This document shows positions 16,165 to 61,416 of a stretch of 64,000 nt of DNA, one piece after another. The notes below the pieces were generated by a model, which saw only the letters and a program-made list of their open reading frames with translations, was not told the DNA's origin and searched no databases. Position numbers and translations under genes: made by a program. Position 1 is the first letter of the stretch. Every line of letters begins with the position of its first letter. The DNA is from Candidatus Jorgensenbacteria bacterium (lineage in GTDB: Bacteria; Patescibacteriota; Minisyncoccia; UBA6257; GWB1-50-10), in contig JAZDFV010000015.1 of assembly GCA_043807585.1 (NCBI GenBank), positions 16,071 through 80,070 on the forward strand. Reading direction: 5' to 3'.

Positions 16165-16204
16165 GGTACTATAGGCTAATTCGCACGAATTAGCCTATAG
16201 TACC
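16165..16204. repeat. 40-bp palindrome ggtactataggctaattcgcacgaattagcctatagtacc (GGTACTA...TAGTACC outer arms, long spacer)
   Basis: Read directly; followed by a ccattcgcgcgaattagagaatgg module also present at 12367 and 12025. Confidence 0.55.
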
Positions 16205-16238
16205 ATTCGCGCGAATTAGAGAATGGGACTCAAGCAAG

Positions 16239-16274
16239 AACATTCTCACATTCTGCAGAATGTGAGAATGTCGT
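16239..16274. repeat. copy of the 40-bp palindrome family
   Basis: aacattctcacattctgcagaatgtgagaatgtcgtt. Confidence 0.7.
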
Positions 16275-16362
16275 TCTCTATGATCCAGACGGCATCCCTG
16301 GGTTTCACTTCGCTCCGCTTCGGCGGATTAGGATTGTCGGGTCCTTGCTTCCCCATATTCGT
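16264..16362 (-). pseudogene. internally deleted remnant of a duplicated ywbE-like gene (5-prime about 90 nt only)
   Basis: 16275-16362 is near-identical to 15308-15403 (the ywbE 5-prime end); a deletion junction joins it directly to the palindrome. Confidence 0.6.
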
Positions 16363-16399
16363 TTTGTCATTTTAACATTTTCGCCTTACTTCTCGTTGG

Positions 16400-17155
16400 T
16401 CAGTTAGTTTTTTTGTACCAAACATCAATTTTTTGACGTGTTTCTCTTCGATTTGCATTAACAAAAGTCTGTAATTGTGGAAAATATCCTAAAAATTCGT
16501 CGTGTAATTTCTTGCGGCTAGCTGATGTCTCTCTACCACTTTTAATTAAATAACTAGTCCGAACTAACCCAATAATAAGATCGACGAGTTGCAGTTCACA
16601 TGATGCATATAAAGGCGCAAAGAGTACTGAAGAATCTCGAATCTGGATTGTGGGCTTCCCCAAAATAGTATTCTTTTTTCTCAGCATATTATTCAGTACC
16701 TTCGAGAATTCTTCCTGTTGCTCAAAATTAAGCGATTGTCTATCAAAGATAAGTCGAGCAGCAGAAAGACGATTGTGTATTAAGCTTCCATGAAGTATCC
16801 ATGGATAAGACAATAGCAGTGCCGCTAACTTCGCGCGGCTGATGTGATTTTCCCATCTTTCCCACGTGCGAGCGTTCACCACAATTGCTCTAAACAGGGC
16901 ATTCGAATCAACAAAAGCAGAAAGAAACCCACTCATAACTTTAGATTGTTTTTCGGTAATATTTGTAGTGTTGGAAAAATGAAGAGTATTGATACAACTT
17001 TCTTTCATTCTCACTTGCCCAAGTCGCTGGAACAAATCGCAATCTACAGGTAGAAAAATACCACCAACCATAAAATGGCTGGTGCCTAGATACCCGAACT
17101 CAGTTTCGTCCAAAAAAATCCTGCAAAGATGAAATACTGATTCTGAAATTTTCAT
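16400..17155 (-). CDS. DUF3800-like protein (defence-island-associated family), AT-rich
   Basis: N-terminal IFLDETEFGY resembles the DUF3800 IFIDESG start; 251 aa; low GC. Confidence 0.4.
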   Translation of the reverse strand: MKISESVFHLCRIFLDETEFGYLGTSHFMVGGIFLPVDCDLFQRLGQVRMKESCINTLHFSNTTNITEKQSKVMSGFLSAFVDSNALFRAIVVNARTWERWENHISRAKLAALLLSYPWILHGSLIHNRLSAARLIFDRQSLNFEQQEEFSKVLNNMLRKKNTILGKPTIQIRDSSVLFAPLYASCELQLVDLIIGLVRTSYLIKSGRETSASRKKLHDEFLGYFPQLQTFVNANRRETRQKIDVWYKKTN

Positions 17156-17223
17156 TACGAAACAAGCCGGGTTGCCCCGGCTTGGAAGTCAAACGGCTTT
17201 CGAGTCAGGGCGCAATTGGTTCT

Positions 17224-18798: not shown

Positions 18799-18844
18799 CT
18801 ACCCCAAAACCGAACCCCGGTAATAGCGGTTAGTAGAGACAAAC

Positions 18845-18897
18845 AAAAACGCCCGCTTGGGCGGGTTTGGATTATCGGGTCCGAATTTACGCATATT
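18845..18897 (-). pseudogene. second short remnant of the ywbE-like 5-prime end
   Basis: gcccgcttgggcgggtttggattatcgggtccgaatttacgcatattcgttttgtcatttta parallels 15345-15420. Confidence 0.45.
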
Positions 18898-19002
18898 CGT
18901 TTTGTCATTTTACACCAAAATGACGACTATTAACCTGTTATTAGAAGCATTGACATAGAGAGTACGTGGCGTTAATATACCGTCGGTTACTTTTGAGAGT
19001 GC

Positions 19003-19221
19003 ATGTGGCCTAGGCCTAAGACGACACTTCGCTTGCGAGGTTCAAACGTCATGGCACATACGAAAGGACTGGGAAAGGAGTACATTTACTGCCAATCGAT
19101 CGACTCACCTCCAGAATGGCAGGACGAAGTAGACTACCTCATTTATGAAGTTCAAAGTCTATTGATAGTAGAGAGGTTCAGCCAAAGATCGGTCGAGACA
19201 GATTTTGTACCTTCTCCCTAA
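19003..19221 (+). CDS. small hypothetical ORF ending at a rho-independent terminator
   Basis: 72-aa ORF; terminator immediately follows. Confidence 0.3.
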   Translation: MWPRPKTTLRLRGSNVMAHTKGLGKEYIYCQSIDSPPEWQDEVDYLIYEVQSLLIVERFSQRSVETDFVPSP

Positions 19222-19250
19222 GCCCAACAAGGATATCCTTGTTGGGCTTT
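19221..19250 (+). terminator. rho-independent terminator agcccaacaaggatatccttgttgggc then ttt
   Basis: 11-bp perfect stem, T-run on the plus strand. Confidence 0.55.
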
Positions 19251-19362
19251 AAATTTTTATGTGGATAACTACGCACAGGTATCCCTTACCAACAAAAAGT
19301 GGTTTTCTTCCCTGCTCGGTGCTTTACTGTCTTCTGCAAGGTAGAGAGGAAGCGGGATTTGG

Positions 19363-19719
19363 TCATTTATTAAAAGCCCATTCAGAAATATTGAGCAGAA
19401 CAATAGCATCCTCCTGTTGATTGGTCCAAATAGGTACTGTTTTATTCCAGTAGAAGAAGTGTGAAGTATTGCCACTCCCATTTACTTGTGTTTTATAAGA
19501 CCCTTTCTTTGTATAAAGAACAATTAAATCACCCTTTTTAATTTCGTGGTCAGTAAACCAAAAAGTAGCACTGGTAGCACTAGAAACTTGCGCCTCCCCT
19601 GTTTTTTTAGATTTGAAAACGGCGTATTCTCCAACGTTATCATCATCCAAAACCTCAAAAATAACCCTTTCTTTCTCTAAATTCCCCGCGTCTTCAATTC
19701 CTTTAATTTGGATTTTCAT
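19363..19719 (-). CDS. hypothetical soluble protein, AT-rich, first gene of a two-gene module
   Basis: 118 aa; stop/start overlap with the upstream gene. Confidence 0.45.
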   Translation of the reverse strand: MKIQIKGIEDAGNLEKERVIFEVLDDDNVGEYAVFKSKKTGEAQVSSATSATFWFTDHEIKKGDLIVLYTKKGSYKTQVNGSGNTSHFFYWNKTVPIWTNQQEDAIVLLNISEWAFNK

Positions 19720-20267
19720 TATGAATTATTTTTCTTAAAAGATTTCAAAAAATCAGGGTTCCACATAGCCAAAACAAAACTCGCTAAACATAAAAGTGCT
19801 ATACCCCAACGATATTGCAATAAATCAGGAGTAAAGAAAAGACCTCCCAATAAACCACCAACGGTGAATAAAAGATTCCTTACTCCAATAGATTCTCCTA
19901 ATCCTAATAATCTCTCCTTCAAAACAGCGGATTCTTCACTCTTTTGATAAAATTTATCCTTAAATGGTTTTAATCCAGCAATTTCACTTTGATAACGCTT
20001 AGTATCACCAAGAAGTGTTCTAGCTACCACTTTTGCTACTTTATTGTTTTCTAAATCTTCTTCGGTAATTTCATCTTTAATGCCAGCGTAGGGCGTTTTT
20101 GCTGACTTAACGCCATCTATTTCTGGCGAACCCTTCGGCTCCTCATCTAGTTTTAGAACTATCTTAGCCATTTTGTCTAAGTATAACACACCTGGTTCAA
20201 TGGTATCTACCAAAGAGTAATCCCGATATTTATAATGAGACAAGGATAGCTTTTCTCTAGAAACCAC
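19719..20267 (-). CDS. hypothetical protein with C-terminal transmembrane helices, AT-rich
   Basis: 182 aa; hydrophobic C-terminus NLLFTVGGLLGGLFF...IALLCLASFVLAMW. Confidence 0.45.
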   Translation of the reverse strand: MVSREKLSLSHYKYRDYSLVDTIEPGVLYLDKMAKIVLKLDEEPKGSPEIDGVKSAKTPYAGIKDEITEEDLENNKVAKVVARTLLGDTKRYQSEIAGLKPFKDKFYQKSEESAVLKERLLGLGESIGVRNLLFTVGGLLGGLFFTPDLLQYRWGIALLCLASFVLAMWNPDFLKSFKKNNS

Positions 20268-35958: not shown

Positions 35959-36379
35959 ATCCTGATCATTATACGCTCGTTTCAGGGGTTTTTGAACCGA
36001 AAGGACCGCGAACGAATTCGCGGTCTCTGGAATCGCCTACTACGCAACAAAACTCGCTGGATTCGGCCGTGCTACGCCGCTATTATGCCATGGCGTAATA
36101 GCGGCGTATGATATGAAGAAAAGAAAGAAAGGCATATCGTCAGGACAATAATTCTTTTAGCTTTCCCAAAATCAACCAATCCGCTGTTTGATTATGTTTC
36201 TTTCTCTCAAGATCAGTTAATTCACTATGCGGTTTTCTAAATTCAACCGGGCCCTCTAAGCTGCTCATCGGCCAACCCGGAAGTATTATTTTCGAGGAGG
36301 GCGAAAAGAATAAAATTTCATGGTCGAGGGCAACTGTCTTTATTGAACCATCCGGGAATGCGAGAGAATAAGCGATGTG

Positions 36380-36754
36380 CTACCTTCCCGTCCTCTTTTC
36401 TTTCGGCGCCCCGGCAATGATTCCCTCCCAATAGTTAAGCAATGTATTGTCGTCTGCTTCGTCTTTGCTTTCAATTCTCCTCACAAAAACTCCCGGCTGT
36501 CTTTCCATGGGCAAAAAATCGACATAGAGAGCTTCATCTTCGGAAAAGACGGGCAAATTGAGCTTCTGGGAATAGAATCTTGCCTTGATCTCTGCGTTTT
36601 CTTCGGCGGTCGTACCATGTTCCTGCGGCTTCTCTGTGATGCCAAAATCGTCAAGGACAAAAATATCTTTAATCATCCCGACGAACAACCCTCCAAACCT
36701 TTCCTTTTTGGCCAGATTACGAGTGGCGATCACTATCTTTTCTACTTTTTCCAT
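36380..36754 (-). CDS. RdgB/Ham1-family non-canonical purine NTP pyrophosphatase, N-terminal portion only (possibly truncated)
   Basis: KIVIATRNLAKKERF ... GTTAEENAEIKARF ... DEALYVDFLPMERQPGVFVRR match Ham1 blocks, but the ORF is 124 aa against about 200. Confidence 0.5.
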   Translation of the reverse strand: MEKVEKIVIATRNLAKKERFGGLFVGMIKDIFVLDDFGITEKPQEHGTTAEENAEIKARFYSQKLNLPVFSEDEALYVDFLPMERQPGVFVRRIESKDEADDNTLLNYWEGIIAGAPKEKRTGR

Positions 36755-36899
36755 TTTTTAATTTTACCCCTTCGATAAACTCAGGACAAGCAAAAAACCG
36801 TCTGTTTGGCGATTTTTATTGGCTTGCCCTGAGCTTGTTGAAGGGCTCCGCTGGATGGATGATGCCTGCCCTGAGCAAAGTCGAAGGGTTAGGGCCTGT

Positions 36900-37580
36900 T
36901 TAGGATATTTCTGCATAGATCGGGTAATGATCCATATAAGCACCTCGTTCTCTCACTACTTTCGACCGCACACTACAGTGTTCAGTAATAAAGATTTTAT
37001 CCATAGATGTGCCGAAATAAGTCGTTGCTAATCCTGCTGAAGTGTCCGACGTGTAGTTGGTGAGAAGCTCGTACGATCGTCTATCTGTGTTGGATAGGAA
37101 ACGTTTTCCAATAATCCAGAAGTTAGTATCTCCGGCAATAATAACCTTGCCGTACTCCTTTATTATTTCACTAAGTATTTTGACTTGCCCAAAGCGTTTT
37201 TCCGGCGAGAAGGAGTTGAGATGTATAGGGACAATATAGTTATCATTCACTGTTAGAATTGTGAACTCTCTAGTCCCATCAACGATTTCTATGTCGGCAT
37301 TTGCGATAACTGCGATGGAATGCTTGTGGTACCAGGCATCCACTAAGAGATGGTGGGCGTAGCGAAGTTTGGTTTGAATTCTAGTAACGTCGCTCGGATG
37401 ATAAAACTCCTGAAGTATCACAACGTCGGCCGATATTTCTTGAAGAACCCCCACTACCTTCTCTATGTTTCCTTCAGAGTAGTATTCGTTTTCTATCGGG
37501 ACATTTCCAATGGTAAATTTCAGGTATCTTGCGTATTTCATCCACGGAAACAACCCGGTATTCCAAACGCAAAGCTTCAT
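36900..37580 (-). CDS. endonuclease/exonuclease/phosphatase (EEP) family protein
   Basis: VVILQE, IIAGDTNF and DHYPIYAEI motifs. Confidence 0.7.
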   Translation of the reverse strand: MKLCVWNTGLFPWMKYARYLKFTIGNVPIENEYYSEGNIEKVVGVLQEISADVVILQEFYHPSDVTRIQTKLRYAHHLLVDAWYHKHSIAVIANADIEIVDGTREFTILTVNDNYIVPIHLNSFSPEKRFGQVKILSEIIKEYGKVIIAGDTNFWIIGKRFLSNTDRRSYELLTNYTSDTSAGLATTYFGTSMDKIFITEHCSVRSKVVRERGAYMDHYPIYAEIS

Positions 37581-37913
37581 GGTAATTAGGAGTATGCCAG
37601 TTCCGGACAGTTTTCGTTCCGCTGGATAGACGATGCCTGCCCCGTTACAAAACTTGTTTTTGCAATGGGGTGAGAACCTGTTTGGTCAGCACTAAAAAAT
37701 ATCTCGCCGGAAGGTACCTAGGTTTTATCGTCGATCACTCTCCCAATGGCAACGCCAACGGCCACGGCAACAAAAAACCAAAGAACTCTATCCCAAAGCC
37801 GAGAAAAGTGCTCTGGCTGGCCAAAAATACTGGCGAGGAAAAATGCCGCGATGACTATGTAAACCAACTCTTTCCACCATTTCATAACCATTCTTGTGAT
37901 GGGTGGGTGGTTT

Positions 37914-38147
37914 TCACTTTTCTAGCCCGCTTAATCTCAAACAATTTTGATAGATAAAATTTAATTCACTCCTTCTTTCTGATTCGGTATTATAGATACG
38001 CAGTAGGCTTTTTATTGCTGAATTAAAACAACTTTTTCTAATTTGTGCTGGGCGAATCTCCCACCAATAAAAAGCTCCGACAACAGAAATAACCAAAATG
38101 GCCAGTAACCCAATCTTAAACCAATTTTCTTTGAGCCAGTTTTTCAT
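37914..38147 (-). CDS. small hypothetical membrane protein
   Basis: 77 aa with one TM helix; AT-rich region. Confidence 0.3.
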   Translation of the reverse strand: MKNWLKENWFKIGLLAILVISVVGAFYWWEIRPAQIRKSCFNSAIKSLLRIYNTESERRSELNFIYQNCLRLSGLEK

Positions 38148-38183
38148 AATTCAGATTCGAAAGAAAAATTTCCCCTTTATGGA

Positions 38184-39794
38184 CTACCAGAAACATCGAA
38201 CACTTCCAGCTGTCGGATTTGATTGACAAGTGACGCTTTTGTAATCCGAATCAGTGCAGTTGAGATAGCCAGGAGCGCCCTGTGAACAGCGTAGCATGCT
38301 AGAACCAAAGTTATCCCTGCAGGAAAATCCGGTGATGTTGTTGGTGCAGGTGACTGACGAAGGAGAACTTTTTATTTGTGGGAGAGAAATCGAACCAGAT
38401 ACGCCTACAGAATTCCCTATTGCACGAGTTATTGATATAATCTCATTTCCAACCGAATCAGTTTCTGACGGCGAGACAGAACCACCGGAATTTACTCGCT
38501 GTTGAATCGAACTCAATTGATTTGATACCCAACTGATCTTGTCCGAAATTGACGTATCAAGCTTGTATCGCGCAATACAATCGTCCCGACGTATTTCGAG
38601 GTCTCGTAAATCTCGCGCTAATTGATCCTCGATGTTCTTTTCTATGCTCGGCATGGTAGCAAAGCCTCTTCTGCTTTCGTAGTAAGCGGTTTTCTGTCTT
38701 TCAGCATCCTGTTTTAGGTAATCGACATTACTGTTATAGGAAGCGAGGCAATTTTGTTCCCCTCTGCTGGCAATATCTTGTTTCATCTGATATAGACGTT
38801 GTAAGTCTAATACCGTCTTTTGGTAGTAATCTAAATCTGATTTTGTTTGTCTTAGAATCTGCTCTTTTAGAAATTTCAATAATTCGCTTTCCAGTGCCGA
38901 TGAAGATATAGTAGGAGTATTATTTTGGGTTGGCCTAGTTTCAGAAGTAGGAGGAAATATCGGTTCAGCAGTTACGGGCACGGACGCACTTTCAGATTTT
39001 TGTTTATTCAGCTCTTGCGGGGTTTTTGCTTTGACCGCTTCTTTCAATCTCAGCTCCTCCACTTCTTTTTTTAACTTTTCAACTTCATTCGCTTGCGGAT
39101 CGCTCGATTCTTTTTTCAATTCCGCTACTTCTTTTTTCAGTTTTTCAATCTCGCCCTTGAGTTCGGCGATTTGTTTTGTTGCTTCATCTTGACCCTTTCT
39201 GCTTGCTTCAATCGCTTTTGTAATCGCCTCTTTCGCTTCATCAGGAACTCTACTTAAAACATCTGATAAAATTTCTTGATGTTTTGAAGTGTTATCAGTA
39301 ATTGAAGCAAGCAATCCTTCCGCCTTTTCCTTATTTTTGATTTGCTTAGATTCTTCTGTTGCGTAAGCGATATTGTTTTCATAACCGGCAACAGCAGTTT
39401 TAACGGCGCTGGTGTCCTTTTCTTCCGCAAGGGCTTCCGCTTCGGCTAATCGTTCATCGGCATATTCCAATGCTTTCTGCGCTTTCTTTTCGGGACTGAA
39501 TGTGAAAAATAGACTTACTCTTTCAAAAGTCGTATCAAAAAAGTAAAAGAAGCTACCGGGTTTTACGCCCGCGTTCGCGGCGGCCGAAGCAGAAACCGGT
39601 AGTGCAAAAACAACCACCAAAAACAAAAGGATAGTAACAAAAGATGATTTTTTCATCAGTTTCATTATATGCGATTTTTCATTTTTTTCGCTCCCGCTAC
39701 GCGGACCTTGCCGCAATAGCAAGCAGTTCCTTGGCGATGACATCCGCGGCGAGCGGTTTCCAAAACAACTTTGCGGCCCGCCGGGCGGCCTCAA
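38184..39794 (-). CDS. secreted coiled-coil protein with Cys-rich C-terminus (DUF5667-like N-terminal region); probable start at internal MKLMKK
   Basis: Signal peptide SSFVTILLFLVVVFALPVSASA, long EAEK-rich coiled-coil, C-terminal Cys cluster; low GC. Confidence 0.45.
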   Translation of the reverse strand: MRPPGGPQSCFGNRSPRMSSPRNCLLLRQGPRSGSEKNEKSHIMKLMKKSSFVTILLFLVVVFALPVSASAAANAGVKPGSFFYFFDTTFERVSLFFTFSPEKKAQKALEYADERLAEAEALAEEKDTSAVKTAVAGYENNIAYATEESKQIKNKEKAEGLLASITDNTSKHQEILSDVLSRVPDEAKEAITKAIEASRKGQDEATKQIAELKGEIEKLKKEVAELKKESSDPQANEVEKLKKEVEELRLKEAVKAKTPQELNKQKSESASVPVTAEPIFPPTSETRPTQNNTPTISSSALESELLKFLKEQILRQTKSDLDYYQKTVLDLQRLYQMKQDIASRGEQNCLASYNSNVDYLKQDAERQKTAYYESRRGFATMPSIEKNIEDQLARDLRDLEIRRDDCIARYKLDTSISDKISWVSNQLSSIQQRVNSGGSVSPSETDSVGNEIISITRAIGNSVGVSGSISLPQIKSSPSSVTCTNNITGFSCRDNFGSSMLRCSQGAPGYLNCTDSDYKSVTCQSNPTAGSVRCFW

Positions 39795-40827
39795 GCGCCT
39801 CGGGGTTCTCGAGGAGGTGTGCAGCCATATTGAGGAAAAGATTGACAGAGAGATTCTTCTGCTCGATCACGGTGGCGGCACCGCTCCCTGCATACTCGTA
39901 GGCATTCGCGCGCTGCTGCCCACCGTCGATCTCGAGGGGAACCAGGAGTGCGGGTTTACCGAACGTGGCGATCTCGTAGATGCTCCCCGCCCCGGCGCGC
40001 GAGAGCACGATGTCCGCCGCCGAGAGCGCCACGCCGAGGGCACGGTCGTCGAGGTTGCCCGCCACCCGGTAGCGCGGTTTGAACACTTCGCCCGCGTCGC
40101 GGAGCACCGAATCGGTGATGCGCTGTACCTCCGGGAGGTTCGCTGCCCCCGCTTGGTGGTAAACTTGGAATTTTTCGAGGAGTGTCGTGAGATTATCAAC
40201 CACGAACGCGTTCAGGGGTGCCGCGCCTTGGGAACCCCCGAGGACAAGGAGGAGCGGCTCACCGGAGTTGAACTTGAGCTCCGTCCTGGCCGTCTCCTGT
40301 GGAGGGACTCCTGCGCGGAGCCCCATGCGCACCGGGTTTCCCACAAACGCCGTTTTCTTTGCGGGAAAGAACCGGGCCGCCCCTTGAAATGCGATGCCGA
40401 TGCGCCTTGCGAAGGGAGCGGAGAGGCGGCTCGTGAGTCCCGGCACCGCGTCGGACTCATGGATCATCACGGGGACGAGATAGAAGCGTGCGGCAAGCAC
40501 CACCGCGAGCGCTCCCGGCCCCCCTTTGGAGAACACCACGTCGGGCATGAGGAGGTAGAGCTTAGTGAGCGCCTGGATGATGCCTATAAAGAACCGCGGC
40601 ACGTCAAGGAGGTTCTGGAAAAAACCGTAGCCGCGCCGCAGCTTGCTTCCCGCAACGGTGTGGATTGCGATCCCACGTTCCTCGAACTCCTCAAGGAATG
40701 CGCTCCGTGGACCGAGGTAGGTAAGCTCGAGGTCGGTCCCTGCGATGGATTTGAGTTTATCGGCAACCGCAAGAAGCGGGTAGATGTGCCCTCCGGTGCC
40801 GCCTCCTGTTAAGACGATTCGTAACAT
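39697..40827 (-). CDS. murG: undecaprenyldiphospho-muramoylpentapeptide beta-N-acetylglucosaminyltransferase
   Basis: MLRIVLTGGGTGGHIYPLLAV N-terminal G-loop and GT28 C-terminal domain. Confidence 0.9.
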   Translation of the reverse strand: MLRIVLTGGGTGGHIYPLLAVADKLKSIAGTDLELTYLGPRSAFLEEFEERGIAIHTVAGSKLRRGYGFFQNLLDVPRFFIGIIQALTKLYLLMPDVVFSKGGPGALAVVLAARFYLVPVMIHESDAVPGLTSRLSAPFARRIGIAFQGAARFFPAKKTAFVGNPVRMGLRAGVPPQETARTELKFNSGEPLLLVLGGSQGAAPLNAFVVDNLTTLLEKFQVYHQAGAANLPEVQRITDSVLRDAGEVFKPRYRVAGNLDDRALGVALSAADIVLSRAGAGSIYEIATFGKPALLVPLEIDGGQQRANAYEYAGSGAATVIEQKNLSVNLFLNMAAHLLENPEALEAARRAAKLFWKPLAADVIAKELLAIAARSA

Positions 40828-49510: not shown

Positions 49511-50161
49511 TCACTTGCCCGAGAGGACAAATCGGTACTTCTTTTTTGACCACACCGGACCAGCATATTCAACTCCAATTCTTTCGCCTTTCGCGATTTG
49601 CCTCTTGCTAACCCGCACTCCCCTGTCCTCAATCCACAAACCTGTCCGTCGGCTGGCGCGCATGCCATTGAACCGCTTATCAATTTTGAAAAACCTTGTA
49701 ACCCGCCCCGGTCCGCTAATACACCGACACCGAGGTTCAACCTCTCTGTATGGAGGTTGAACCTCCATAAATTGAACACTTCTTATTAGAACCGCCGCAG
49801 GGTATCCTTTCTCGCGCGTCACCACATTCAGCATCCAGTGCATCCCATAGGTGAAGTACACGTACCAGCGCCCGGGCGGCCCGAACATAGGGGCGTTCCG
49901 CTTGGTGAGCCCCCGCGAGGCGTGCGAGGCCCCATCATGCGGCCCGTCGTAGGCCTCCACCTCGGTTATCATTGCGACGACGTACTTACGTCGTCGTCCT
50001 GAGGACATTCGGCTGAGCCCTTCGGCGGTGAGCTCAGGGCCGAACCGCTCAGTCGAAGCCCCTGTCGAAGGACATCTCCGCACCAAGTACTTCCCCAGTA
50101 GTTCCCGCGCCACCGCAAGCGCCGGACGCTCAAAAAATTTATCCGACAACAATTTTCTCAT
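49511..50161 (-). CDS. DNA-3-methyladenine glycosylase (Mpg/AAG family) with in-frame repeat insertion
   Basis: FFERPALAVARELLGKYLV ... ITEVEAYDGPHDGASHA ... FGPPGRWYVYFTYGMHWMLNVV match AAG blocks; [27 protein letters not shown] segment is encoded by the CTGAGC-family element (50010-50075). Confidence 0.8.
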   Translation of the reverse strand: MRKLLSDKFFERPALAVARELLGKYLVRRCPSTGASTERFGPELTAEGLSRMSSGRRRKYVVAMITEVEAYDGPHDGASHASRGLTKRNAPMFGPPGRWYVYFTYGMHWMLNVVTREKGYPAAVLIRSVQFMEVQPPYREVEPRCRCISGPGRVTRFFKIDKRFNGMRASRRTGLWIEDRGVRVSKRQIAKGERIGVEYAGPVWSKKKYRFVLSGK

Positions 50162-50750: not shown

Positions 50751-51332
50751 TTATGGTCTCTGGTACAACCCCGTGAGGGCAGTTTGGTTAATGATGTGTC
50801 CCTCCATCGCCGCGAGGAGCGCGGCATTATCGGCGCCCGCGGGAACGGTGAGCATCGTATCCAAGGCATAGAGTGAAAAGACGTAGCGGTGGGGCTTGTC
50901 TCCGCGCGGCGGACACGGACCGCTGTACTTTACGTATCCAGCACTCGTTTTCCCCTGCACGGCATCGGACGGCAGATTGTCCTCGGAGATGTACTGCGTT
51001 TTCGGGTCTATGTTCCAGACGAGCCAGTGAATCCAGGTCCCGCGCGGCGCATCGGGATCATCCACCACGAGCGCAAAACTCACCGTGCCCTCAGGCGTGT
51101 TCTTGATCTCCAGAAATGGATTCACGTCGTCCCCGTCACAGGTAAACTTTGCGGGGATGGCACCGCCTTCCTTAAACACCGAGCTCTTGATGGTGAAAGT
51201 GTCCATGGGAACGTGAGAAGCCGGCACGGGGTTCCGCGGGGGTGCGAGGGAGATGCCAACCACGATGGCAATACCCACGCACCCGAGGAGAATCCACCGC
51301 ATGGCACCGTTTTCCACACCATTGTCTGGCAT
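50751..51332 (-). CDS. YbhB/YbcL-family phosphatidylethanolamine-binding (PEBP) protein
   Basis: FTCDGDDVNP ... VVDDPDAP ... HW ... YSGPCPP.GDKPHRYVFSLYALD signature. Confidence 0.75.
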   Translation of the reverse strand: MPDNGVENGAMRWILLGCVGIAIVVGISLAPPRNPVPASHVPMDTFTIKSSVFKEGGAIPAKFTCDGDDVNPFLEIKNTPEGTVSFALVVDDPDAPRGTWIHWLVWNIDPKTQYISEDNLPSDAVQGKTSAGYVKYSGPCPPRGDKPHRYVFSLYALDTMLTVPAGADNAALLAAMEGHIINQTALTGLYQRP

Positions 51333-51370
51333 TTTGGAAAAATTTACAAGCCGCGTATAATAGGGGCGTT

Positions 51371-52474
51371 ATGGCCATTGCTATCTACCGCCGCTACCGG
51401 CCGGCCACTTTCGGAGACCTCCTCGGGCAGGAGCTCACCGCCCGCACTCTGAAGGAAGCCGCGAAGCAGGAGAAACTCGCCCACGCGTACCTCCTAGCGG
51501 GGCCGCGCGGCACAGGGAAGACCACCACCGCGCGCCTTATCGCCAAGATAGCGAACTGCGAGACCCGCGCGAAGGACGCGAAGTTCCGCGCGGAGGGAGA
51601 GCCCTGCAACCACTGCACCCATTGCACCGAGATCGACGAGGGGCGCAGTTTGGATGTGATAGAAATAGACGCGGCGTCAAACCGCGGCATTGATGAAATG
51701 CGGGACCTGAAGGAGAGCATTCGCGTCTCCCCCTCCTCATCACGCCACAAGGTGTTCATCATTGACGAGGCGCACCAGCTCACGAAGGACGCCTTTAATG
51801 CGCTCTTAAAAAGTTTGGAGGAGCCGCCGCCCCACATCATTATGATCCTTGCGACCACGGAGGCAGACCGCATCCCGCCGACCATCATTTCACGCACCCA
51901 GCAGTTCTACTTCCGCCGCGTGCCAAGGGAGCTCGTCATGCAAAAACTCACCCGCATCGCCAAGGAGGAACAGGTGGATGTGAGCGGGGAAGCACTGGAC
52001 CTCATCGCCGCCTCCGGTGAGGGTAGCTTTCGCGACGCAGAATCGCTCCTGGACCAGCTAATCTCTTTCGGCGGCCACAGCATCGCCCTCACCGACGTGG
52101 AGGGCATGATAGGCAAGGTGGGATTCGCGAAACTCTCTGCATTCGCGGGGCTCCTCATTGCGGGAGACCGCAAGGCGGCGCTCGCCGCGCTCGCTGAACT
52201 TTCCGATGCCGGCTACAACCTCGCCCAATTCACCAAGGATCTCATCCAGTACCTCCGCCGCGTGGCGGTCATCGCCTACAGCGCTTCCATGAAAGACGTG
52301 TTTGCGCGGGAACTCACCGCCGAGCACGTCGCCCAGCTCACAGAGCATGCCAAGGAGTTCAAGGACAAGCACCTGGAACTCCTGAAGGGCCTCATCCACG
52401 CCTACAGCCAGATGCGCTACAGCCAGTTCCCGATAATTCCGTTGGAAGTTGCGATAATAGAAGCGCTGAAATAG
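51371..52474 (+). CDS. dnaX: DNA polymerase III subunit gamma/tau (short, gamma-like)
   Basis: YRPATFGDLLGQE, GPRGTGKTTTARL Walker A, CNHCTHC zinc module, FIIDEAHQL. Confidence 0.85.
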   Translation: MAIAIYRRYRPATFGDLLGQELTARTLKEAAKQEKLAHAYLLAGPRGTGKTTTARLIAKIANCETRAKDAKFRAEGEPCNHCTHCTEIDEGRSLDVIEIDAASNRGIDEMRDLKESIRVSPSSSRHKVFIIDEAHQLTKDAFNALLKSLEEPPPHIIMILATTEADRIPPTIISRTQQFYFRRVPRELVMQKLTRIAKEEQVDVSGEALDLIAASGEGSFRDAESLLDQLISFGGHSIALTDVEGMIGKVGFAKLSAFAGLLIAGDRKAALAALAELSDAGYNLAQFTKDLIQYLRRVAVIAYSASMKDVFARELTAEHVAQLTEHAKEFKDKHLELLKGLIHAYSQMRYSQFPIIPLEVAIIEALK

Positions 52475-52537
52475 AAAATACGCTTTCATTTATGGACTAG
52501 GCTATGCTATAATAGAGCATATTACCTAGGTTCGTTT

Positions 52538-53224
52538 ATGTTATCCCCTTCTCTTAAAGAAAAGGCTGTCGCGCTCCGGCGTGGTGGTCTTTCTTACTCT
52601 GAAATACTCAACCAAATACCAATTGCAAAATCAACTCTTTCGACGTGGTTACATTCGGTTGGATTATCCAAAAAACAAAAGCAACGACTGACGGAAAAGA
52701 AATTAGCTTCTGCAAGACGCGGCGCTTTTAGAAAGCACGAAATAAGACTCTTAAAAACGGATGCTATTTTCAAAGAGGCAATAAAAGATATTGCCCATAT
52801 TTCCGAAAGAGAGTTGTTTCTTATAGGCGTTGCGTTGTATTGGGCAGAAGGAGCTAAAGAAAAAGAATGGAGGCCTGGGTCAGGGGTACAATTCACAAAC
52901 TCAGATGCTTCTATGGTAACACTCTTCTTGAAATGGCTTACTGATGTGTGCCGTGTAGATAAAGATGAAATCTACTTTGACCTTTTTATTCACGAAACCA
53001 GCAAGAATCGAGTTAGTTCTATAATTGATTATTGGTCCAAACATACAAATTTTCCAAGAAATTACTTCCAGCACGTTTATTTTAAACGAAATAAACTAGC
53101 CACCAAGAGAAAAAACGTTGGAGATTCTTATTTTGGAGTTATAAAGGTGAGAGTAAAAACAAGCTCAACACTAAATAGAAAAATTGCAGGATGGACAAAG
53201 GGCGTGATAAAGTATGCAAAGTGA
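52538..53224 (+). CDS. hypothetical protein with N-terminal HTH and a LAGLIDADG-like core (possible degenerate homing endonuclease), low GC, ending 2 nt before tRNA-Gln
   Basis: LSYSEILNQIPIAKSTLSTWL HTH-like; ELFLIGVALYWAEGAKE resembles a LAGLIDADG helix. Confidence 0.35.
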   Translation: MLSPSLKEKAVALRRGGLSYSEILNQIPIAKSTLSTWLHSVGLSKKQKQRLTEKKLASARRGAFRKHEIRLLKTDAIFKEAIKDIAHISERELFLIGVALYWAEGAKEKEWRPGSGVQFTNSDASMVTLFLKWLTDVCRVDKDEIYFDLFIHETSKNRVSSIIDYWSKHTNFPRNYFQHVYFKRNKLATKRKNVGDSYFGVIKVRVKTSSTLNRKIAGWTKGVIKYAK

Positions 53225-53226
53225 AT

Positions 53227-53297
53227 TGGGGGGTGGTGTAACGGTAGCACGCCAGGCTTTGAACCTGGAAATTTAGGTCCGATTCCTAGCCCCCCAG
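53227..53297 (+). tRNA. tRNA-Gln (anticodon TTG); T-loop reads TCCGATT (C at position 55); CCA not encoded
   Basis: Hand-folded cloverleaf: acceptor TGGGGGG/CCCCCCA, 3-bp D-stem GTG/CAC (as in E. coli tRNA-Gln), anticodon stem CCAGG/CCTGG, loop CTTTGAA, T-stem TTAGG/CCTAG. Confidence 0.6.
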
Positions 53298-53544
53298 CAC
53301 TCAATTTTTCTTAGCAAGGAACGAGCTTAGAAAAATGAGTGCTCCGACCGGAGAGTCTGAGCGAATAAGTCAGCGCAGCCTGCCCTGAGTTAACCCTGGG
53401 TTTGCCGAAGGATTTATCGAAGGGTATCGAGGGGCCGAGGAGCCTCATAAATATGCTAATAACTACAGGAAAGGACCTAGAGCCAAACATAAAAAATATC
53501 TCGAAAACATAGAGAGTCGGTTTTTATTTCATGATATTTACGGA

Positions 53545-54411
53545 TTGAAACATCCTCTAGCAACCTATAATGTTTCCTTCGGGAAGGTTGAGAGTGATTT
53601 ACAGGATTTTTTTGTTGCGTATAAAAATATTGAAATTAGAGATTTTCTTCCGGAAAACAAAAGCGATGAGAAGATAAAAGAAGCATTAAAACGTTATAGG
53701 GTTTTTCTTTATTCTTTAAGAGAGTATCTAGACGACTGCTTTCATGTCGTAAAAACCTTTATCCCTCCGCAACCACAATTTAGATACAATAAAAATCAAT
53801 ATGATTGGTTGAAACAAAATATTATCATGCCACATATGGTGTCTTTTCTTAGTAAAATTGATACCTATAAAAAGTTCTTAGATAGTATTGTTAATGAACT
53901 CAAACACAATAACGCTGTTCTAAACGGGATTGTTTTCTATGACACAATCACCAAAGATTTTTCATTAGGATACTATATAGCAAATGTGTTCAATGGAAGA
54001 TATGAACCAGTAGAGAAAATCCACCAGAAATTTCATAATCAAGACACCGCGTTTTCTTTCGCGAGGGATATTAGATATAACTCTTGCAATATCTTTCAAT
54101 TATCTGAGGAACTAGTTGAATTTATTGTTAATGGTTTGAAATTGCAGATACCTGTACCTACGCAGGAACGAACTCCAAATGAGGAGCGCCGCTTGCTATA
54201 TGAAGATATTTCTAATCTACCAAGATATTTTTTCCCTGATGAATATCAAAAAGATGTTCCAAGCGTAGTACTAAGAGAAAATAGTGCATTAAAATTAGAG
54301 CTCCCTTCTAAACTTTCTTTGAGACCACTCCATCACAACAGAGTGTTGCTTTATCACTCTGGCGATGGGAAAACGAGGAGTTTTGCATTACTTTACTACT
54401 CTGGAGAATAA
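53545..54411 (+). CDS. hypothetical protein, AT-rich island
   Basis: 288-aa ORF, no recognised family. Confidence 0.4.
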   Translation: MKHPLATYNVSFGKVESDLQDFFVAYKNIEIRDFLPENKSDEKIKEALKRYRVFLYSLREYLDDCFHVVKTFIPPQPQFRYNKNQYDWLKQNIIMPHMVSFLSKIDTYKKFLDSIVNELKHNNAVLNGIVFYDTITKDFSLGYYIANVFNGRYEPVEKIHQKFHNQDTAFSFARDIRYNSCNIFQLSEELVEFIVNGLKLQIPVPTQERTPNEERRLLYEDISNLPRYFFPDEYQKDVPSVVLRENSALKLELPSKLSLRPLHHNRVLLYHSGDGKTRSFALLYYSGE

Positions 54412-54504
54412 CCCCGACCGAGACGGGTCAATGGGAAAATGCATTTCCAGCAACTTCTCCCTCCTTGTTGTTCCTAACCGCCCTTCTATACTGGAGGTAC
54501 GCCT

Positions 54505-54753
54505 ATGAGAAAGATTATTGGTTCAATATTGGATATTGCTTACTACCTTTTAGGAGCATCTGCGGTGGTAGTTTTATACGCTATCTTCAAATCATCAGTA
54601 CCGTCGGGCCTACGCTGGCTTTTTTGGGTCGTTTTTATCGGGGGTCTCTGGTTAGTGGCTTGGATAGTGGCCCGGAAACAGGGTAAATCATTTTGGGATA
54701 TTTGGAGTGAAAACAAAGAAAGTGGATCCGATCAAGATAAGTCAGCAAAATAG
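54505..54753 (+). CDS. hypothetical two-TM small membrane protein
   Basis: 82-aa ORF, two hydrophobic helices. Confidence 0.4.
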   Translation: MRKIIGSILDIAYYLLGASAVVVLYAIFKSSVPSGLRWLFWVVFIGGLWLVAWIVARKQGKSFWDIWSENKESGSDQDKSAK

Positions 54754-54832
54754 GTTCGAATAGCGTTCTTACTACGCAACACGAGTCAGCACGGTATCGA
54801 GAGACCAAGAGAGATAACAACGTGTTACTAGA

Positions 54833-55546
54833 ATGAACAACAACGGGGAACTTAAAAAGAAGCTTGATGAACTGGTTAAAAATGCTGACTTCATTCTGGC
54901 TAGTCCCGATACGTTAGAAAAACTAAAGGCGAGGGGATTTCCCATTCAATCTAAGTTTGTAACTTATCAAGAATATCTAGATAAATTATTTGAAGAGAAA
55001 AAGAAAAATGCCAATGAAATCATTCAGGATTTCCCGCCGCTTTCTGATAAGTTAGCGAATGCCGCAATAAAATCATTATACGAAGAGATAAGAGAATGCT
55101 ATGCCTTAGGTCTATTTGGAGCAGCCATAACTTTATCGGTAATTCTTTTAGAACTGGGTTTTAAATATAAAATTTATAACAAAAGAAGAGAACATGATCC
55201 AAAATCACAATGGGAAAAAATAGAAATAATCGATCTTACTACGGCAATCAAAAATTTAAAAAATCTTGGTGAATTATCAAATTCTGAGAAAAAAGAATTG
55301 GACAATTTTAATTTAGAGATAAGAAATCCGTACATCCACTATAATTTACAAAAACTAGTTTGCAATATAATGGTAGAAAAGTTACCTCTACTCAAAACCG
55401 AAACAGGCGAGATGGAAATTCTTGAGAATGTAGAAGTTGCAAAAAAACCTTATTTATGGTTTTCGGGTAAAAAATTTGTGGATAAAAATCAAGCTCACAG
55501 CATACTTAAGTTTTGTATTGGGTGGGTAAATAAAGTTTTGGGATAG
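54833..55546 (+). CDS. hypothetical protein, AT-rich
   Basis: 237-aa ORF, no recognised family. Confidence 0.4.
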   Translation: MNNNGELKKKLDELVKNADFILASPDTLEKLKARGFPIQSKFVTYQEYLDKLFEEKKKNANEIIQDFPPLSDKLANAAIKSLYEEIRECYALGLFGAAITLSVILLELGFKYKIYNKRREHDPKSQWEKIEIIDLTTAIKNLKNLGELSNSEKKELDNFNLEIRNPYIHYNLQKLVCNIMVEKLPLLKTETGEMEILENVEVAKKPYLWFSGKKFVDKNQAHSILKFCIGWVNKVLG

Positions 55547-55616
55547 AGTTTTCTTACCCCGACCGAAACCCTCCTTCAGTAAACTTTCGGACGGGCAGGC
55601 CCTTCAACGGGTTCGG

Positions 55617-55700
55617 CAAGGGCTTCGACTGAGCGGTTCGGCCCTGAGCTCACCGCCGAAGGGCTCAGCCGAATGTCCTCACCGCAAGCAAGCTCAGGGC
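55617..55700. mobile_element. intergenic copy of the CTGAGC-family element (ggcttcgactgagcggttcggccctgagctcaccgccgaagggctcagccgaatgtcc)
   Basis: Near-identical to 60158-60232 and the reverse complement of 50010-50075. Confidence 0.65.
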
Positions 55701-55790
55701 AAGCGGGTCAGTTTGACCGCTAGATTGACTGTGATAAATAGAAGACCCACACGAATGTGGGTCTTTTGGTTTCTACCTCTCAATATATCT

Positions 55791-57272
55791 TCACTGCTGA
55801 AGTATTTCCTGATAAAGCGTAGCTTCGTTCTTCAGTAAATATCCAGCCGTAAATATTCTCCTCCACCTCTCGCGCGCCTCGGCGGCGCTGAACACCATCC
55901 GGAGGATCTCGTTCCACCGCTCCACCTCCTCTTTCGATATATCAAGTTCATCGGTACGTCGAAGATCCCCTCTTTCAATGATTTCTCTGATGGACAGCGG
56001 GATGGATTCCTCGCCGCGATATTTCTCGAGAAGCGCATCGGCTTCCGCGAGTGAGTGATTCACTGTTTCCCTGATTTCTTTCATGTTCGCCGACGGCTCA
56101 AACACATTGAATGCCGCAAGCTGGACAATGCGGTACCCGGTTTCTCCGTCAATACCGAAGGAAACGCCCTCTCTTTTCAGAAACTCCTTCGCCTCGCTCG
56201 ATGCATAACATCCGCGCAATTCCACGATCTCTTGGAGCATGTGGTCTGGATAGACCACGAGCCCCGTGAGCACGGTATTCATGCGTTTTAGGGCGAACGT
56301 GAGTACGTGGAAAAGGTCGGGCCATGCGACCCTTTCGACTGACGACTGTTCGATTGACCGTTCCTCCCACGTGACCACGTTCTCGCGTATCGCGTCAAAA
56401 TACCCCCGCGCAAGCCGTGCCATTCCCTGGATGTTCTCCGAAAAAATGGTGTTCTTCTTGTGCGGCATCGCCGACGAACCTTTCTGCTTCCTACTGAACG
56501 GCTCGTGGTAGATGGGCCGGCCGCTCCGCGCACCAAGCCGTATGTCGAGCGCGATCTTCTCGAGCGAAAGACTTATCTGAAGCAGGGCGCCCGCAAGCGG
56601 AAGATGCAGCTCACGCGGCAATATCTGAGTCGCTCCGTAGAACGGCTCGAAACCGAGAAGTTCAAGTGCTCGCCTCTCCACTGCGGGGTTGATGCTGCCA
56701 TAATTGCCGATCGCGCCGGAGATCTTCGCATACTTGAGCCCATCCTGCGCGGCATAGAAAGCTGTCGCACTTTCCCCCAACGTCCGAAGCCACGTCAGGC
56801 ATCTCTTGCCGAACGTTTGGAGCTCCGCTTCCTGGCCATGGGTTCTCCCGTTCATGATGGTGTAGCGGTGTTTGAGCGCGAGCACCTTCAAGGTTGGCAC
56901 GAGATCGTGCACCATCTCCTCCACAACCTCACAGGATTGCTTCAGCATTTTCATGAACGCCGGCTCCTCTGTGTCGTAGGAGGTGATGTTCTCGTGAAAA
57001 TAGCGGTGGAGCCCGACGGGAAGATACTGTCGCCGTTCGTCGAGGAACGCATTCAGGTCGTGGCGGATCTCTTTATCCCTTGCATACCACCACGCAATGT
57101 CGATTGGTGCATTTTCAAGCGCTGTCCGTATCTCTAGATGCGTCCCACGGGGGAATTGGCCCAGCTCTTCGTTCGCCTGAACGACCGCGAGTTCGGTATC
57201 CTGCCAATGTGCCAATCTTCTCTCGTCCTTCCAAATCTCCGCAATCCGGGCGTCTTCATAACGTGTGATCAT
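55791..57272 (-). CDS. purB: adenylosuccinate lyase
   Basis: GSSAMPHKKNTIFSEN signature; fumarate-lyase fold; start taken at MITRYEDARIAEIW. Confidence 0.85.
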   Translation of the reverse strand: MITRYEDARIAEIWKDERRLAHWQDTELAVVQANEELGQFPRGTHLEIRTALENAPIDIAWWYARDKEIRHDLNAFLDERRQYLPVGLHRYFHENITSYDTEEPAFMKMLKQSCEVVEEMVHDLVPTLKVLALKHRYTIMNGRTHGQEAELQTFGKRCLTWLRTLGESATAFYAAQDGLKYAKISGAIGNYGSINPAVERRALELLGFEPFYGATQILPRELHLPLAGALLQISLSLEKIALDIRLGARSGRPIYHEPFSRKQKGSSAMPHKKNTIFSENIQGMARLARGYFDAIRENVVTWEERSIEQSSVERVAWPDLFHVLTFALKRMNTVLTGLVVYPDHMLQEIVELRGCYASSEAKEFLKREGVSFGIDGETGYRIVQLAAFNVFEPSANMKEIRETVNHSLAEADALLEKYRGEESIPLSIREIIERGDLRRTDELDISKEEVERWNEILRMVFSAAEARERWRRIFTAGYLLKNEATLYQEILQQ

Positions 57273-57473
57273 AGGAACCTCCGTTATATAGTGATCAAGG
57301 TAAGTGGATTTGAAATTGACTAGGATGACCATACCAATTCCCTCCGAGAATGTCAATCAATTTTCCGCTTACCTTTCTCTTATACTAAAGTCGCCCTCCC
57401 GGGGCTCCGTAACCGAAAAGCCCCACCGATTACCTCGATGGGGCTTTTTATGTTCGCGGGAGGGTGTCCACGC

Positions 57474-59451: not shown

Positions 59452-61416
59452 TTAACGCAGTGCGTTACGGAGTATCCGCTTGCGCAGGCGGATGCTTTTG
59501 GGCGTCACCTCCACCAGCTCGTCCTCGCCGATGTACTCCAGCGCCTGCTCCAGGGAGAGCGTGCGGGGCGGGACGAGATCGTCGGTTACCGCGTCCGTCT
59601 TGGCCCGGAAGTTCGTCAGCTGTTTCTGCCTGCAAACGTTCACCGCAATGTCGTTCGCCTTGGCATTCTGCCCCGCCACCTGTCCCTCATACACCTTCTC
59701 GCCGGGACCGATGAACATGACGCCCCGTTCCTGCGCGCGCAGGAGCGCATACGCGGTGGTCGTGCCCGTTTCGTGTACGATAAGCGAACCGTGTGCGCTC
59801 GTCGGGATAAAATCCAGTTTCGGGAAGTAACCAGCGAAAAGCGAGTTCACGACGCCGGTGCCCCGGGTTTCTATTATGAACTCGTTCCGGAAACCGATGA
59901 GACCGCGGGTGGTGATGAAAAAGTGGAACGAGGCGATGCCGTTATCAACACTCATGTTTTTGAGCTCGCCCCTCCGCATGCTCATTTTCTGAATGACGAG
60001 GCCGGCATACGCCTCCGGCACCTCGATCCACACGTCCTCCGTCGGCTCCAGCATTACGCCGCTCTCCTCCTCCCTTCGACTTTGCTCAGGGTGGTACGGT
60101 ACTAAATCGCTAGATGTGCTATCGGTATTTGACGTTGCATTGTTGCCTGGGTGGTGAGGGCTTCGACTGAGCGGTTCGGCCCTGAGCTCACCGCCGAAGG
60201 GCTCAGCCGAACGTCCTTGTCGAACCATGAAAATGACCTCCGGCCGCGAGACCTGCACCTCATAGCCCTCGCGCCGCATGGTTTCTATGAGGATCGCGAG
60301 GTGCAGCTCGCCGCGCCCGCTCACGACGAATTCGTCGGCGGAGGCGCCCTCCTCAACGCGGAGCGCCACGTCATTGTCGAGTTCCCTGAAGAGCCGCTCA
60401 CGGATGTTGCGTGACGTGCAGTATTCCCCTTCCTCTCCGGAGAAGGGTGAATCATTGGCCGAGAACACCATTTTCACCGTGGGCTTTTCAATGGCGATGG
60501 GAGTCAGGGGGTCCGGATGGGCGGCATCCGCGAGCGTGTCGCCGATATTCACCTCTGGGATCCCCGCGATGGCCACAATGTCGCCCGCGGGCACGGCATC
60601 GATGGGCACGCGTCCCAAGCCGGAGAACGTCATGAGTTCCGTGATCTTGAAATTCTTGACCGCACTGCCGCTCCGGAGGTGCGCGATCGTCATGCCGTTC
60701 TCCGCGACGCCGCGATGGATGCGCCCCACTGCGATCCTCCCCTGGTAATCGTTGTATTGTATGGAAGCCACCATCATCTGGAACGGCGCATCGCTCTCCA
60801 TCTTCGGAGCGGGGATGTGCTGGAGAATGGCCTCAAAGAGCGGGGCGATATTTTTCATGGCGGCGAGGTCCGGCGCGATGCCCGCCACTCCAAATTTGCC
60901 CGCCGCGTAGAGAATGGGAAAATTCAGCTGTTCGTTCGTCGCGCCAAGCTCAAGGAAGAGCTCGATTACCTTTTCAAGCACGTAGTGCACGCGCGCACTT
61001 TTCTTGTCTATTTTATTGATCACGAGAATGATCTTATGCCCCGCGTTGAGCGCCTTCTTGAGCACAAAACGGGTCTGCGGCATCGGCCCCTCCTGCGCAT
61101 CCACGAGCAGGAGCGAGCCGTCCACCATATTAAGGACGCGCTCCACCTCCCCGCCGAAGTCCGCGTGACCGGGCGTGTCAATGATGTTGATCTTCGTCCC
61201 CCGGTAGACCACGGCGGCGTTCTTGGAAAAAATGGTGATGCCGCGCTCCCGCTCGAGCTCGTTCGAGTCCATGATGAGCTCGTTATTCACCAGCTTGCCG
61301 AGCTTGGTCTCGGATTGCTTCAGGAGCGCGTCAACGAGGGTGGACTTGCCGTGGTCTACATGAGCAATAATTGCTATATTTCGAATCTGCATAATATTCT
61401 CTAACTCTAGCTCCAA
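59452..61416 (-). CDS. typA: translational GTPase TypA/BipA carrying an in-frame repeat-element insertion
   Basis: [18 protein letters not shown]1, [13 protein letters not shown]; about 49-aa low-complexity insertion ([40 protein letters not shown]) encoded by 60158-60232. Confidence 0.85.
60158..60232. mobile_element. CTGAGC-family element inserted in-frame in typA
   Basis: gggcttcgactgagcggttcggccctgagctcaccgccgaagggctcagccgaacgtccttgtcgaa. Confidence 0.65.

Follow-up and report, generated by a model that had tools for sequence, protein, structure and literature searches.

SegB of phage T4, a free-standing GIY-YIG homing endonuclease encoded in the T4 tRNA cluster, recognizes the T-psi-C motif of tRNA and spreads flanking tRNA genes (PMC2330249). 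Among the protein-coding passengers of tRNA arrays in mycobacteria, their plasmids and phages, HNH genes are the most frequent, and a role in spreading or diversifying tRNA repertoires has been suggested for them (PMC5966550; PMC6409571). The Ty1/Ty3 and Dictyostelium TRE retrotransposons target the upstream flank of tRNA genes (PMC5911963), and LAGLIDADG enzymes occur in rRNA insertions of bacteria belonging to the candidate phyla radiation (CPR) (PMC11270868). Here we describe a locus of a comparable kind in a 64,000-nt stretch of contig JAZDFV010000015.1 from a Candidatus Jorgensenbacteria bacterium, hereafter the window. An open reading frame (ORF) encoding 228 amino acids, ORF228, lies between dnaX and a tRNA-Gln(UUG) gene (Table 1). 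With moderate confidence, we read it as a free-standing, homing-endonuclease-like selfish gene that colonizes the immediate flank of a tRNA gene and belongs to a large unannotated family.

The comparison set comprised 88 loci encoding an ORF228 homologue (the window and 87 others), 86 of which could be assessed for a neighboring tRNA; the other two are contigs ending at or inside the ORF. A tRNA-Gln(UUG) gene was found directly 3' of the ORF and on the same strand in all 86 (7/7 exact look-ups and 79/79 genome loci). In 31 loci the gap between the two was -15 nt, the ORF stopping at a TAA within the D-loop of the tRNA; in most of the remaining ones it was 0–27 nt. Flanking genes vary among the loci, with dnaX upstream in 53/88. 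One subfamily in Paceibacteria-type CPR bacteria occupies the tiny spacer between dnaX and tRNA-Gln(UUG), always on the strand of the tRNA. An earlier note on this DNA, made from the letters alone, had reported a 228-aa ORF stopping 2 nt before a tRNA-Gln, which is the arrangement found, and had proposed tRNA-associated mobile DNA. For ORF228 that proposal held up well, given a family that stands beside tRNA genes nearly everywhere it was found, one fixed site and clean empty sites.

The same placement was observed well outside CPR bacteria: in these, in Chloroflexota and in huge phages, members of the family are nearly always immediate neighbors of a tRNA gene. All 24 IMG/VR loci, on viral contigs of 21–498 kb, have the ORF in an inter-tRNA gap of a tRNA array. 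These viral relatives share the family motifs at 21–43% identity, and many of them lie within -10 to +22 nt of a same-strand tRNA, with partners that include Cys, His, Val, Lys and Thr. In Chloroflexota, two Anaerolineaceae chromosomes carry the gene order argS-dcd-ORF-tRNA-Val(UAC) with a gap of 15–58 nt (loci L245, 3001–3816, and L248, 3001–3769). tRNA-Val(UAC) is also the downstream partner at L213, L237, L239 and L250, several phage loci among them. One viral tRNA array that carries a family member (L230) also contains a tmRNA gene (1801–2199).

Sites without the gene were sampled by a tRNA-centered scan of metagenome contigs, which returned tRNA-Gln regardless of context. Thirteen loci with dnaX upstream of tRNA-Gln lack ORF228. 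Clean empty sites measure 2 (L189), 9 (L200), 11 (L120), 12 (L089) and 21 nt (L159) from the dnaX stop to tRNA-Gln, and no ORF remnant was detected in the longer dnaX-tRNA-Gln gaps of empty loci. Empty and occupied loci are interspersed on a neighbor-joining dnaX tree of 63 taxa, with at least 10 Fitch parsimony changes. Several occupied/empty pairs are sisters on this tree, and L197, which belongs to the window's own clade (63% dnaX identity to the window), is empty. The clean empty sites and the scattered distribution thus mark ORF228 as an optional insertion into a tiny conserved spacer, and dnaX is the ancestral left neighbor of tRNA-Gln. Because empty sites exist, an essential partnership of ORF228 with tRNA-Gln was ruled out.

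Taken together, the fixed junction, clean empty sites, scattered distribution, modular build and phage relatives are best fitted by a homing-type reading. The N-terminal helix-turn-helix (HTH) would recognize a site in the DNA, either at the tRNA gene or at the 5' junction of that gene, and the conserved C-terminal domain (E104, K107, N121, D123), for which we infer nuclease activity, would nick or cut alleles lacking the ORF. Repair from an occupied allele would then copy in the ORF and, along with it, the 5' portion or more of the tRNA gene. Transcription of ORF228 may start from its own extended -10 promoter; the candidate element has no good -35 and hence went unlisted in a promoter consensus scan. 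RNase P would free the tRNA from the read-through transcript and a hairpin after the tRNA would end the unit, so that the essential tRNA would stay expressed and the insertion would cost little. If the gene is indeed selfish, CPR genomes, minimal as they are, harbor selfish DNA beside an essential tRNA gene, and homing would offer a concrete cause of tRNA allele turnover.

Like SegB, ORF228 is a free-standing gene of a family lodged between tRNA genes and absent from relatives that keep the homologous tRNA region, and a mechanism of the SegB type would account for the linkage to tRNA as well as for the differences between tRNA alleles described below. However, SegB has a recognizable GIY-YIG domain, and experiments demonstrated that it cleaves DNA and homes. 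Neither holds for the ORF228 family, which instead joins an HTH_23 head to an unclassified C-terminal domain. The family is also found in bacterial chromosomes at a single-copy essential tRNA, where it apparently persists largely vertically. With the HNH genes of mycobacterial and phage arrays it shares the role of a protein-coding passenger of tRNA arrays, but the HNH motif is absent from the family and no sequence relationship was found. The likeness to Ty1/Ty3 and TRE is an analogy only: selfish DNA uses the tRNA 5' flank as a safe, conserved landing site, whereas those elements are RNA-mediated, are tethered to the RNA polymerase III machinery and have unrelated proteins and mechanism. The niche is a known one, from T4 SegB and mycobacterial arrays, with a new occupant of more than 5,600 clusters at 50% identity, for whose effector domain the searches turned up neither a name nor a Pfam or PHROG model nor a structural relative. 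Its genomic rule is simple and strong, a gene beside a tRNA, from CPR chromosomes to huge phages.

Homologues of ORF228 numbered 3412 at E <= 1e-3, nearly all of 225–235 aa. A profile search with the family returned 5632 clusters at 50% identity, and a profile built on the viral members returned 5633 proteins across many phyla; at least 587 GTDB species genomes encode a homologue. No description of this HTH-LYWAEG family was found in the literature searched. The dN/dS ratio (nonsynonymous over synonymous substitution rates) of 0.08–0.13 indicates a functional protein under purifying selection. Some family members are longer (380–580 aa), with between two and four HTH modules in tandem or with apparent whole-protein duplications (P0133, P0146, P0158, P0161, P0188, P0191, P0226, P0254).

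The AlphaFold2 model of ORF228 (pLDDT 85) comprises an N-terminal three-helix bundle, with predicted HTH helices at residues 4–15, 20–26 and 31–40, a long linker helix and a C-terminal alpha/beta domain. Searches of Pfam, NCBIfam, PHROGs and PADLOC gave nothing significant for the window protein. HTH_23 (PF13384) was matched by 23/33 relatives and by 54/58 diverse members at E <= 0.1, and was above the 24.6-bit cut-off in relatives such as L208 (32.8 bits) and P0161 (69.9 bits). The HTH proposed in the earlier note is thus borne out for the family, while the window protein itself stays below threshold. In a profile search of PDB, the nearest solved sequences to the head were the Sleeping Beauty PAI subdomain and SinR, and the head is also close to HTH_7 (resolvase), HTH_Tnp_1 and TnsD. 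The C-terminal domain modeled alone reached a pTM of 0.81, with predicted helices (H) and strands (E) in the order H-E-H-E-H-E-E-H. L100, Y101, W102, E104, G105, W166, G200 and G218 are invariant in this domain family-wide, and K107, N121 and D123 nearly so; within LYWAEG the A position is taken by A, G or S and the other residues do not vary. The domain had no Foldseek match in PDB (350,542 chains) or BFVD (best E = 0.06, TM 0.35), and no known homing-endonuclease nuclease domain was detected in the family with Pfam, PHROGs, NCBIfam, PADLOC or Foldseek. Should it prove to be a nuclease, it would represent a new type of homing endonuclease with possible value as a sequence-specific tool.

The company that the HTH keeps raises the question of a novel site-specific transposase or recombinase that would place its own gene in the 5' flank of tRNAs by a route other than homing. 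Its kinship to the Sleeping Beauty PAI subdomain, HTH_7, HTH_Tnp_1 and TnsD, the target-specific insertion with clean empty sites, and the label "transposase-like" that some sources give to relatives would all suit such an enzyme. We nevertheless consider it improbable, with terminal inverted repeats no longer than chance (the longest end-to-end inverted repeat averages 9.08 nt across 86 loci vs 9.0 nt (8.91) in shuffles), no DDE, serine or tyrosine recombinase domain, one copy per locus, and an ORF end that overlaps the tRNA in about a third of the loci and leaves no room for an element end. An insertion sequence (IS) or conventional transposon was likewise rejected for want of terminal inverted repeats and of a DDE or recombinase domain. 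An integrase-borne island at the tRNA was discarded too, with no integrase domain in the islet ORFs and no repetition of the tRNA 3' end.

A further candidate is a factor acting on RNA, whose C-terminal domain would bind or process the neighboring tRNA (in maturation, in protection against anticodon nucleases or with the tRNA as a cofactor), the linkage serving co-expression. The tight, co-oriented linkage to a specific tRNA, Gln in CPR bacteria and Val-UAC in Chloroflexota and several phages, is in keeping with this, and one report links phage tRNA arrays to counter-defense (PMC13096335). We hold it to be very unlikely: many relatives have a functioning tRNA in the absence of the ORF, the head is an HTH of the DNA type, phage copies have widely differing partner tRNAs and are in some cases in opposite orientation, and no RNA-binding or RNA-enzyme fold was detected with Foldseek in PDB or BFVD.

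The history of the gene is mixed. Identity between ORFs correlates weakly with dnaX identity (rho = 0.24), and within a single clade ORF dN is anywhere from 1.0 to 6.3 times dnaX dN. L052 and L057 have dnaX proteins that are 92% identical and ORFs that are 63% identical, and the L052 ORF pairs with that of L068. Similarly, the window ORF groups with L007, L008 and L010 and not with its dnaX relatives L084 and L076, and the window tRNA-Gln has the D-arm type of L007, L008 and L010. D-arm type differs in 4/6 occupied/empty sister pairs, and a GTG-type D-arm is found at 20/76 occupied vs 0/13 empty sites (p = 0.035, uncorrected for phylogeny), which may reflect co-conversion. ORF GC is on average 5.5 points below that of the flanks (38% vs 57% upstream in the window). 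Overall, both signals are present, vertical descent being the main one, with the ORF partly exchanged at shallow depth.

Several observations weigh against homing. ORF-tree clades mostly match dnaX-tree clades, so that the gene has for the most part descended vertically, and many of the empty sites could be due to recurrent loss. Each locus has one copy, and degraded copies or remnants were not found, unlike in the classical gain-decay-loss cycle. Searches with Pfam (on 58 diverse members as well as the window protein), Foldseek against PDB and BFVD, and PDB profiles returned no nuclease or other catalytic homology for the C-terminal domain, and GenBank phages and PLSDB plasmids gave no family match. 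Among viral copies, 5/22 are opposite in strand to the neighboring tRNAs, so co-transcription with the tRNA is not universal. Finally, the association with the D-arm is weak and uncorrected for phylogeny.

The main rival is a DNA-binding regulator, native to the host or domesticated, such as a transcription factor or a protein of chromatin type. It would act in cis on the adjacent tRNA or operon, and would have been ancestral in the clade and lost repeatedly wherever it was dispensable. Strong purifying selection, high conservation and uniform length, agreement of ORF and dnaX trees at clade level, ORF GC that tracks the GC of flanks and genome (r = 0.78) and the single, undecayed copy all accord with it; so does the HTH as sole recognizable domain, and sources label relatives "transcriptional regulator". 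Yet a regulator requires several independent precise deletions in one clade, each restoring a dnaX-tRNA spacer of 2–12 nt. It leaves unexplained the phage inter-tRNA insertions, in either orientation and at many different tRNAs, and it sits poorly with the shallow tree incongruence, the uneven ORF/dnaX rate ratios and the reading of the ORF into the tRNA in 31 loci. We regard a regulator as a serious but rather unlikely explanation.

The earlier note had called a helix of ORF228 LAGLIDADG-like. There is some likeness: a helix ends in an acidic residue and Gly (LYWAEG vs LAGLIDADG), a stretch 'FxNxD..M..F' recalls the segment after the LAGLIDADG motif of enzymes such as I-CreI, the protein is small, and the host is a CPR bacterium, in which LAGLIDADG genes are common, with one at the window start. 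It did not extend beyond motif resemblance. LAGLIDADG Pfam models gave no match to the window protein even at E <= 1 and none to the family consensus; 1/33 members touched LAGLIDADG_1 (E = 0.0076, below cut-off), and LAGLIDADG was not among the 25 commonest of 83 Pfam families matched in 58 diverse members. Profile searches of PDB sequences with the family yielded HTH matches only, hhalign of the family against the verified I-CreI sequence gave a probability of 0.4%, and no LAGLIDADG chain appeared in the Foldseek top 50, although PDB holds many LAGLIDADG entries. The order of elements differs as well, the modeled alpha-beta-alpha-beta-alpha-beta-beta-alpha contrasting with the LAGLIDADG core, alpha-beta-beta-alpha-beta-beta-alpha with a four-stranded antiparallel DNA-binding sheet. 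In viral members, the stretch that would have to hold the first beta hairpin is only six residues long. The invariant E104-G105 lies at the end of the long helix, and small residues at packing positions are misaligned with LAGLIDADG. Membership of ORF228 in the LAGLIDADG family was accordingly rejected, all sequence-profile and fold tests, on full-length and domain models, being negative.

The tRNA-Gln itself is a genuine working tRNA with a variant common in its lineage. It was called as Gln(ttg) by ARAGORN and scored 62.6 bits against Rfam RF00005 (gathering threshold 29), with the full model (1–71) covered. As read from the sequence, it has U1-A72 and G73; the cloverleaf is intact, and CCA is not encoded. 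Its sole departure is the T-loop UCCGAUU with C at position 55, reported correctly in the earlier note, where it was held to mark either a real tRNA oddity or a pseudo-tRNA. U54-C55-C56 is found in 19/86 of the ORF228-adjacent tRNA-Gln and the canonical UUC in 64/86, and C55 recurs in 3/13 other tRNAs of ORF228-bearing loci: tRNA-Pro(GGG) (L020, 1122–1194), tRNA-Lys(UUU) (L026, 145–218) and tRNA-Gly(CCC) (L074). It was also seen in tRNA-Gln genes without ORF228, such as those of L159 and L091. The departure from U/psi55 looks clade-wide, and since C55 recurs in about 22% of the clade's tRNAs it is no mark of a pseudogene; nor does it mark the ORF228 element. A pseudo-tRNA was ruled out by this recurrence, by the high Rfam score and by intact stems that vary among the compared loci through compensatory changes. 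C55 in about a fifth of the clade's tRNAs raises the question of how far U/psi55 is universal and of whether TruB is used by these organisms.

By analogy with SegB, C55 might have served as self-immunity against a T-loop-reading nuclease. This was unsupported by its presence in other tRNAs, by the viral arrays, where non-canonical T-loops are not enriched beside a family member (about 12% vs 9%), and by the empty sites, where C55 is not significantly rarer than at occupied ones (19/87 occupied vs 1/13 empty, p = 0.46).

tRNA-Gln differs strongly in its stems among genomes with 84–92% dnaX protein identity (L052, L057, L066, L068, L072 and others), with compensatory changes; the genes of L052 and L057 are just 69% identical. 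Some related tRNA-Gln have A instead of G as discriminator, and CCA is encoded in some only (L023, L037, L050, L061, L067, L069, L086). Exchange of tRNA alleles by the family would explain such large stem differences between close relatives. More tentatively, HTH-LYWAEG proteins may form an unrecognized homing-endonuclease family with a new catalytic fold, specialized in the tRNA 5' flanks of Patescibacteria, Chloroflexota and huge phages, and drive tRNA allele exchange, including that of CPR tRNA-Gln.

Directly 3' of the tRNA-Gln the window holds a stable hairpin of 18 pairs with two bulges, in line with the hairpin described in the earlier note. Behind the tRNA, 30% of related loci have a hairpin with z < -2, vs 4% of controls, and the element is likely a terminator or a 3'-processing signal of the ORF-tRNA unit.

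ORF228 and the tRNA-Gln lie in a low-GC islet, with a GC content of 0.37–0.41 over 53–56 kb vs 0.55–0.60 in the flanks, as first noticed from the letters. Three further ORFs follow the tRNA, also as described (288, 82 and 237 aa). The 87 other loci with ORF228 contain no homologue of any of the three. ORF288 and ORF82 form singleton clusters; ORF288 had no family match in the profile libraries searched, which included Pfam and PADLOC, and ORF82 has two hydrophobic stretches that, judged by eye, resemble membrane helices. ORF237 has 34 homologues, which in 3/3 other contexts stand beside restriction-modification or IS genes, suggesting an accessory gene of defense or mobile islands. Neighbors at these loci (L218, L219, L220) are N6/N4 methyltransferases, a type I restriction-modification system, DUF6119 and an IS3 transposase. 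A defense-system annotation of the islet ORFs was tried and dropped, PADLOC returning nothing meaningful.

All three ORFs downstream of the tRNA are cargo, unrelated and specific to the lineage. The conserved unit is ORF228, perhaps with part of the tRNA, rather than the 3.3-kb islet that had been proposed as mobile. A pair of 13/14-matching direct repeats had likewise been put forward as possible bounds of an excisable unit. The pair exists, with its second copy one position to the left of where it had been placed (55556–55569, not 55557–55570). By our estimate, about one such pair is expected by chance among all position pairs in a few kb, and 17 direct-repeat families of similar size occur in 4.5 kb; taken by itself, this 14-mer is rare (0.02 expected). 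As att sites the repeats were rejected, being at chance level and unrelated to the tRNA, and the ORFs they bracket have no homologues for an empty-site test.

Table 1. Features of the ORF228 locus and its surroundings, in window coordinates.
Feature	Position or length	Strand	Basis or remark
dnaX (DNA polymerase III gamma/tau)	51242–52474	+	Pfam DNA_pol3_delta2, 1.1e-42
Spacer, dnaX to ORF228	63 nt		Holds TGcTATAAT
Putative extended -10 promoter-like element TGcTATAAT	52505–52513	+	Inferred by reading of the sequence
ORF228 (228 aa)	52538–53224	+	Conserved element of the locus
N-terminal three-helix HTH of ORF228, residues ~4–40	52547–52657	+	HTH_23/resolvase/PAI-like; AlphaFold2 and family Pfam matches
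C-terminal ~140-aa domain of ORF228	52793–53221	+	Fold without known match; presumed effector (possibly nuclease)
LYWAEG motif, ORF228 residues 100–105	52835–52852	+	Family alignments
tRNA-Gln(UUG)	53227–53298	+	ARAGORN and Rfam RF00005; C55 at 53279
Stable hairpin	53296–53343	+	-20.3 kcal/mol, z = -4.8
ORF288 (288 aa)	53545–54411	+	Lineage-specific hypothetical
13/14 repeat, first copy	54411–54424	+	Overlaps small hairpin after ORF288 stop
ORF82 (82 aa)	54505–54753	+	Small, lineage-specific
ORF237 (237 aa)	54833–55546	+	Rare family
13/14 repeat, second copy	55556–55569	+	Overlaps small hairpin
62-nt GC-rich repeat copy	55620–55681	+	Right islet edge
Lyase_1-family gene (adenylosuccinate-lyase-like)	55791–57356	-	Right flank, normal GC; Pfam Lyase_1, 3.6e-29

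The window contains a genuine LAGLIDADG ORF fragment at its start (1 to ~205, minus strand), running off the window edge and reading 'DYIAGFVDGEGCF' / 'MEKLPGDYIAGFVDGEGCFALKF...'. The earlier note was right about its presence and had used it to support a homing-endonuclease origin of the islet; lying 52 kb away, it is unrelated to ORF228 and the link is coincidental. Two more low-GC islets (GC 0.38–0.47, in a genome of ~57% GC) are found at ~16000–20000 and ~36000–40000. The 62-nt GC-rich repeat at the right islet edge has three copies in the window with 98–100% identity, the other two being at 50000–50061 (-) and 60157–60217 (+). One copy lies in frame within a methylpurine-DNA glycosylase ORF (49511–50161, -), to which it adds 16 residues.

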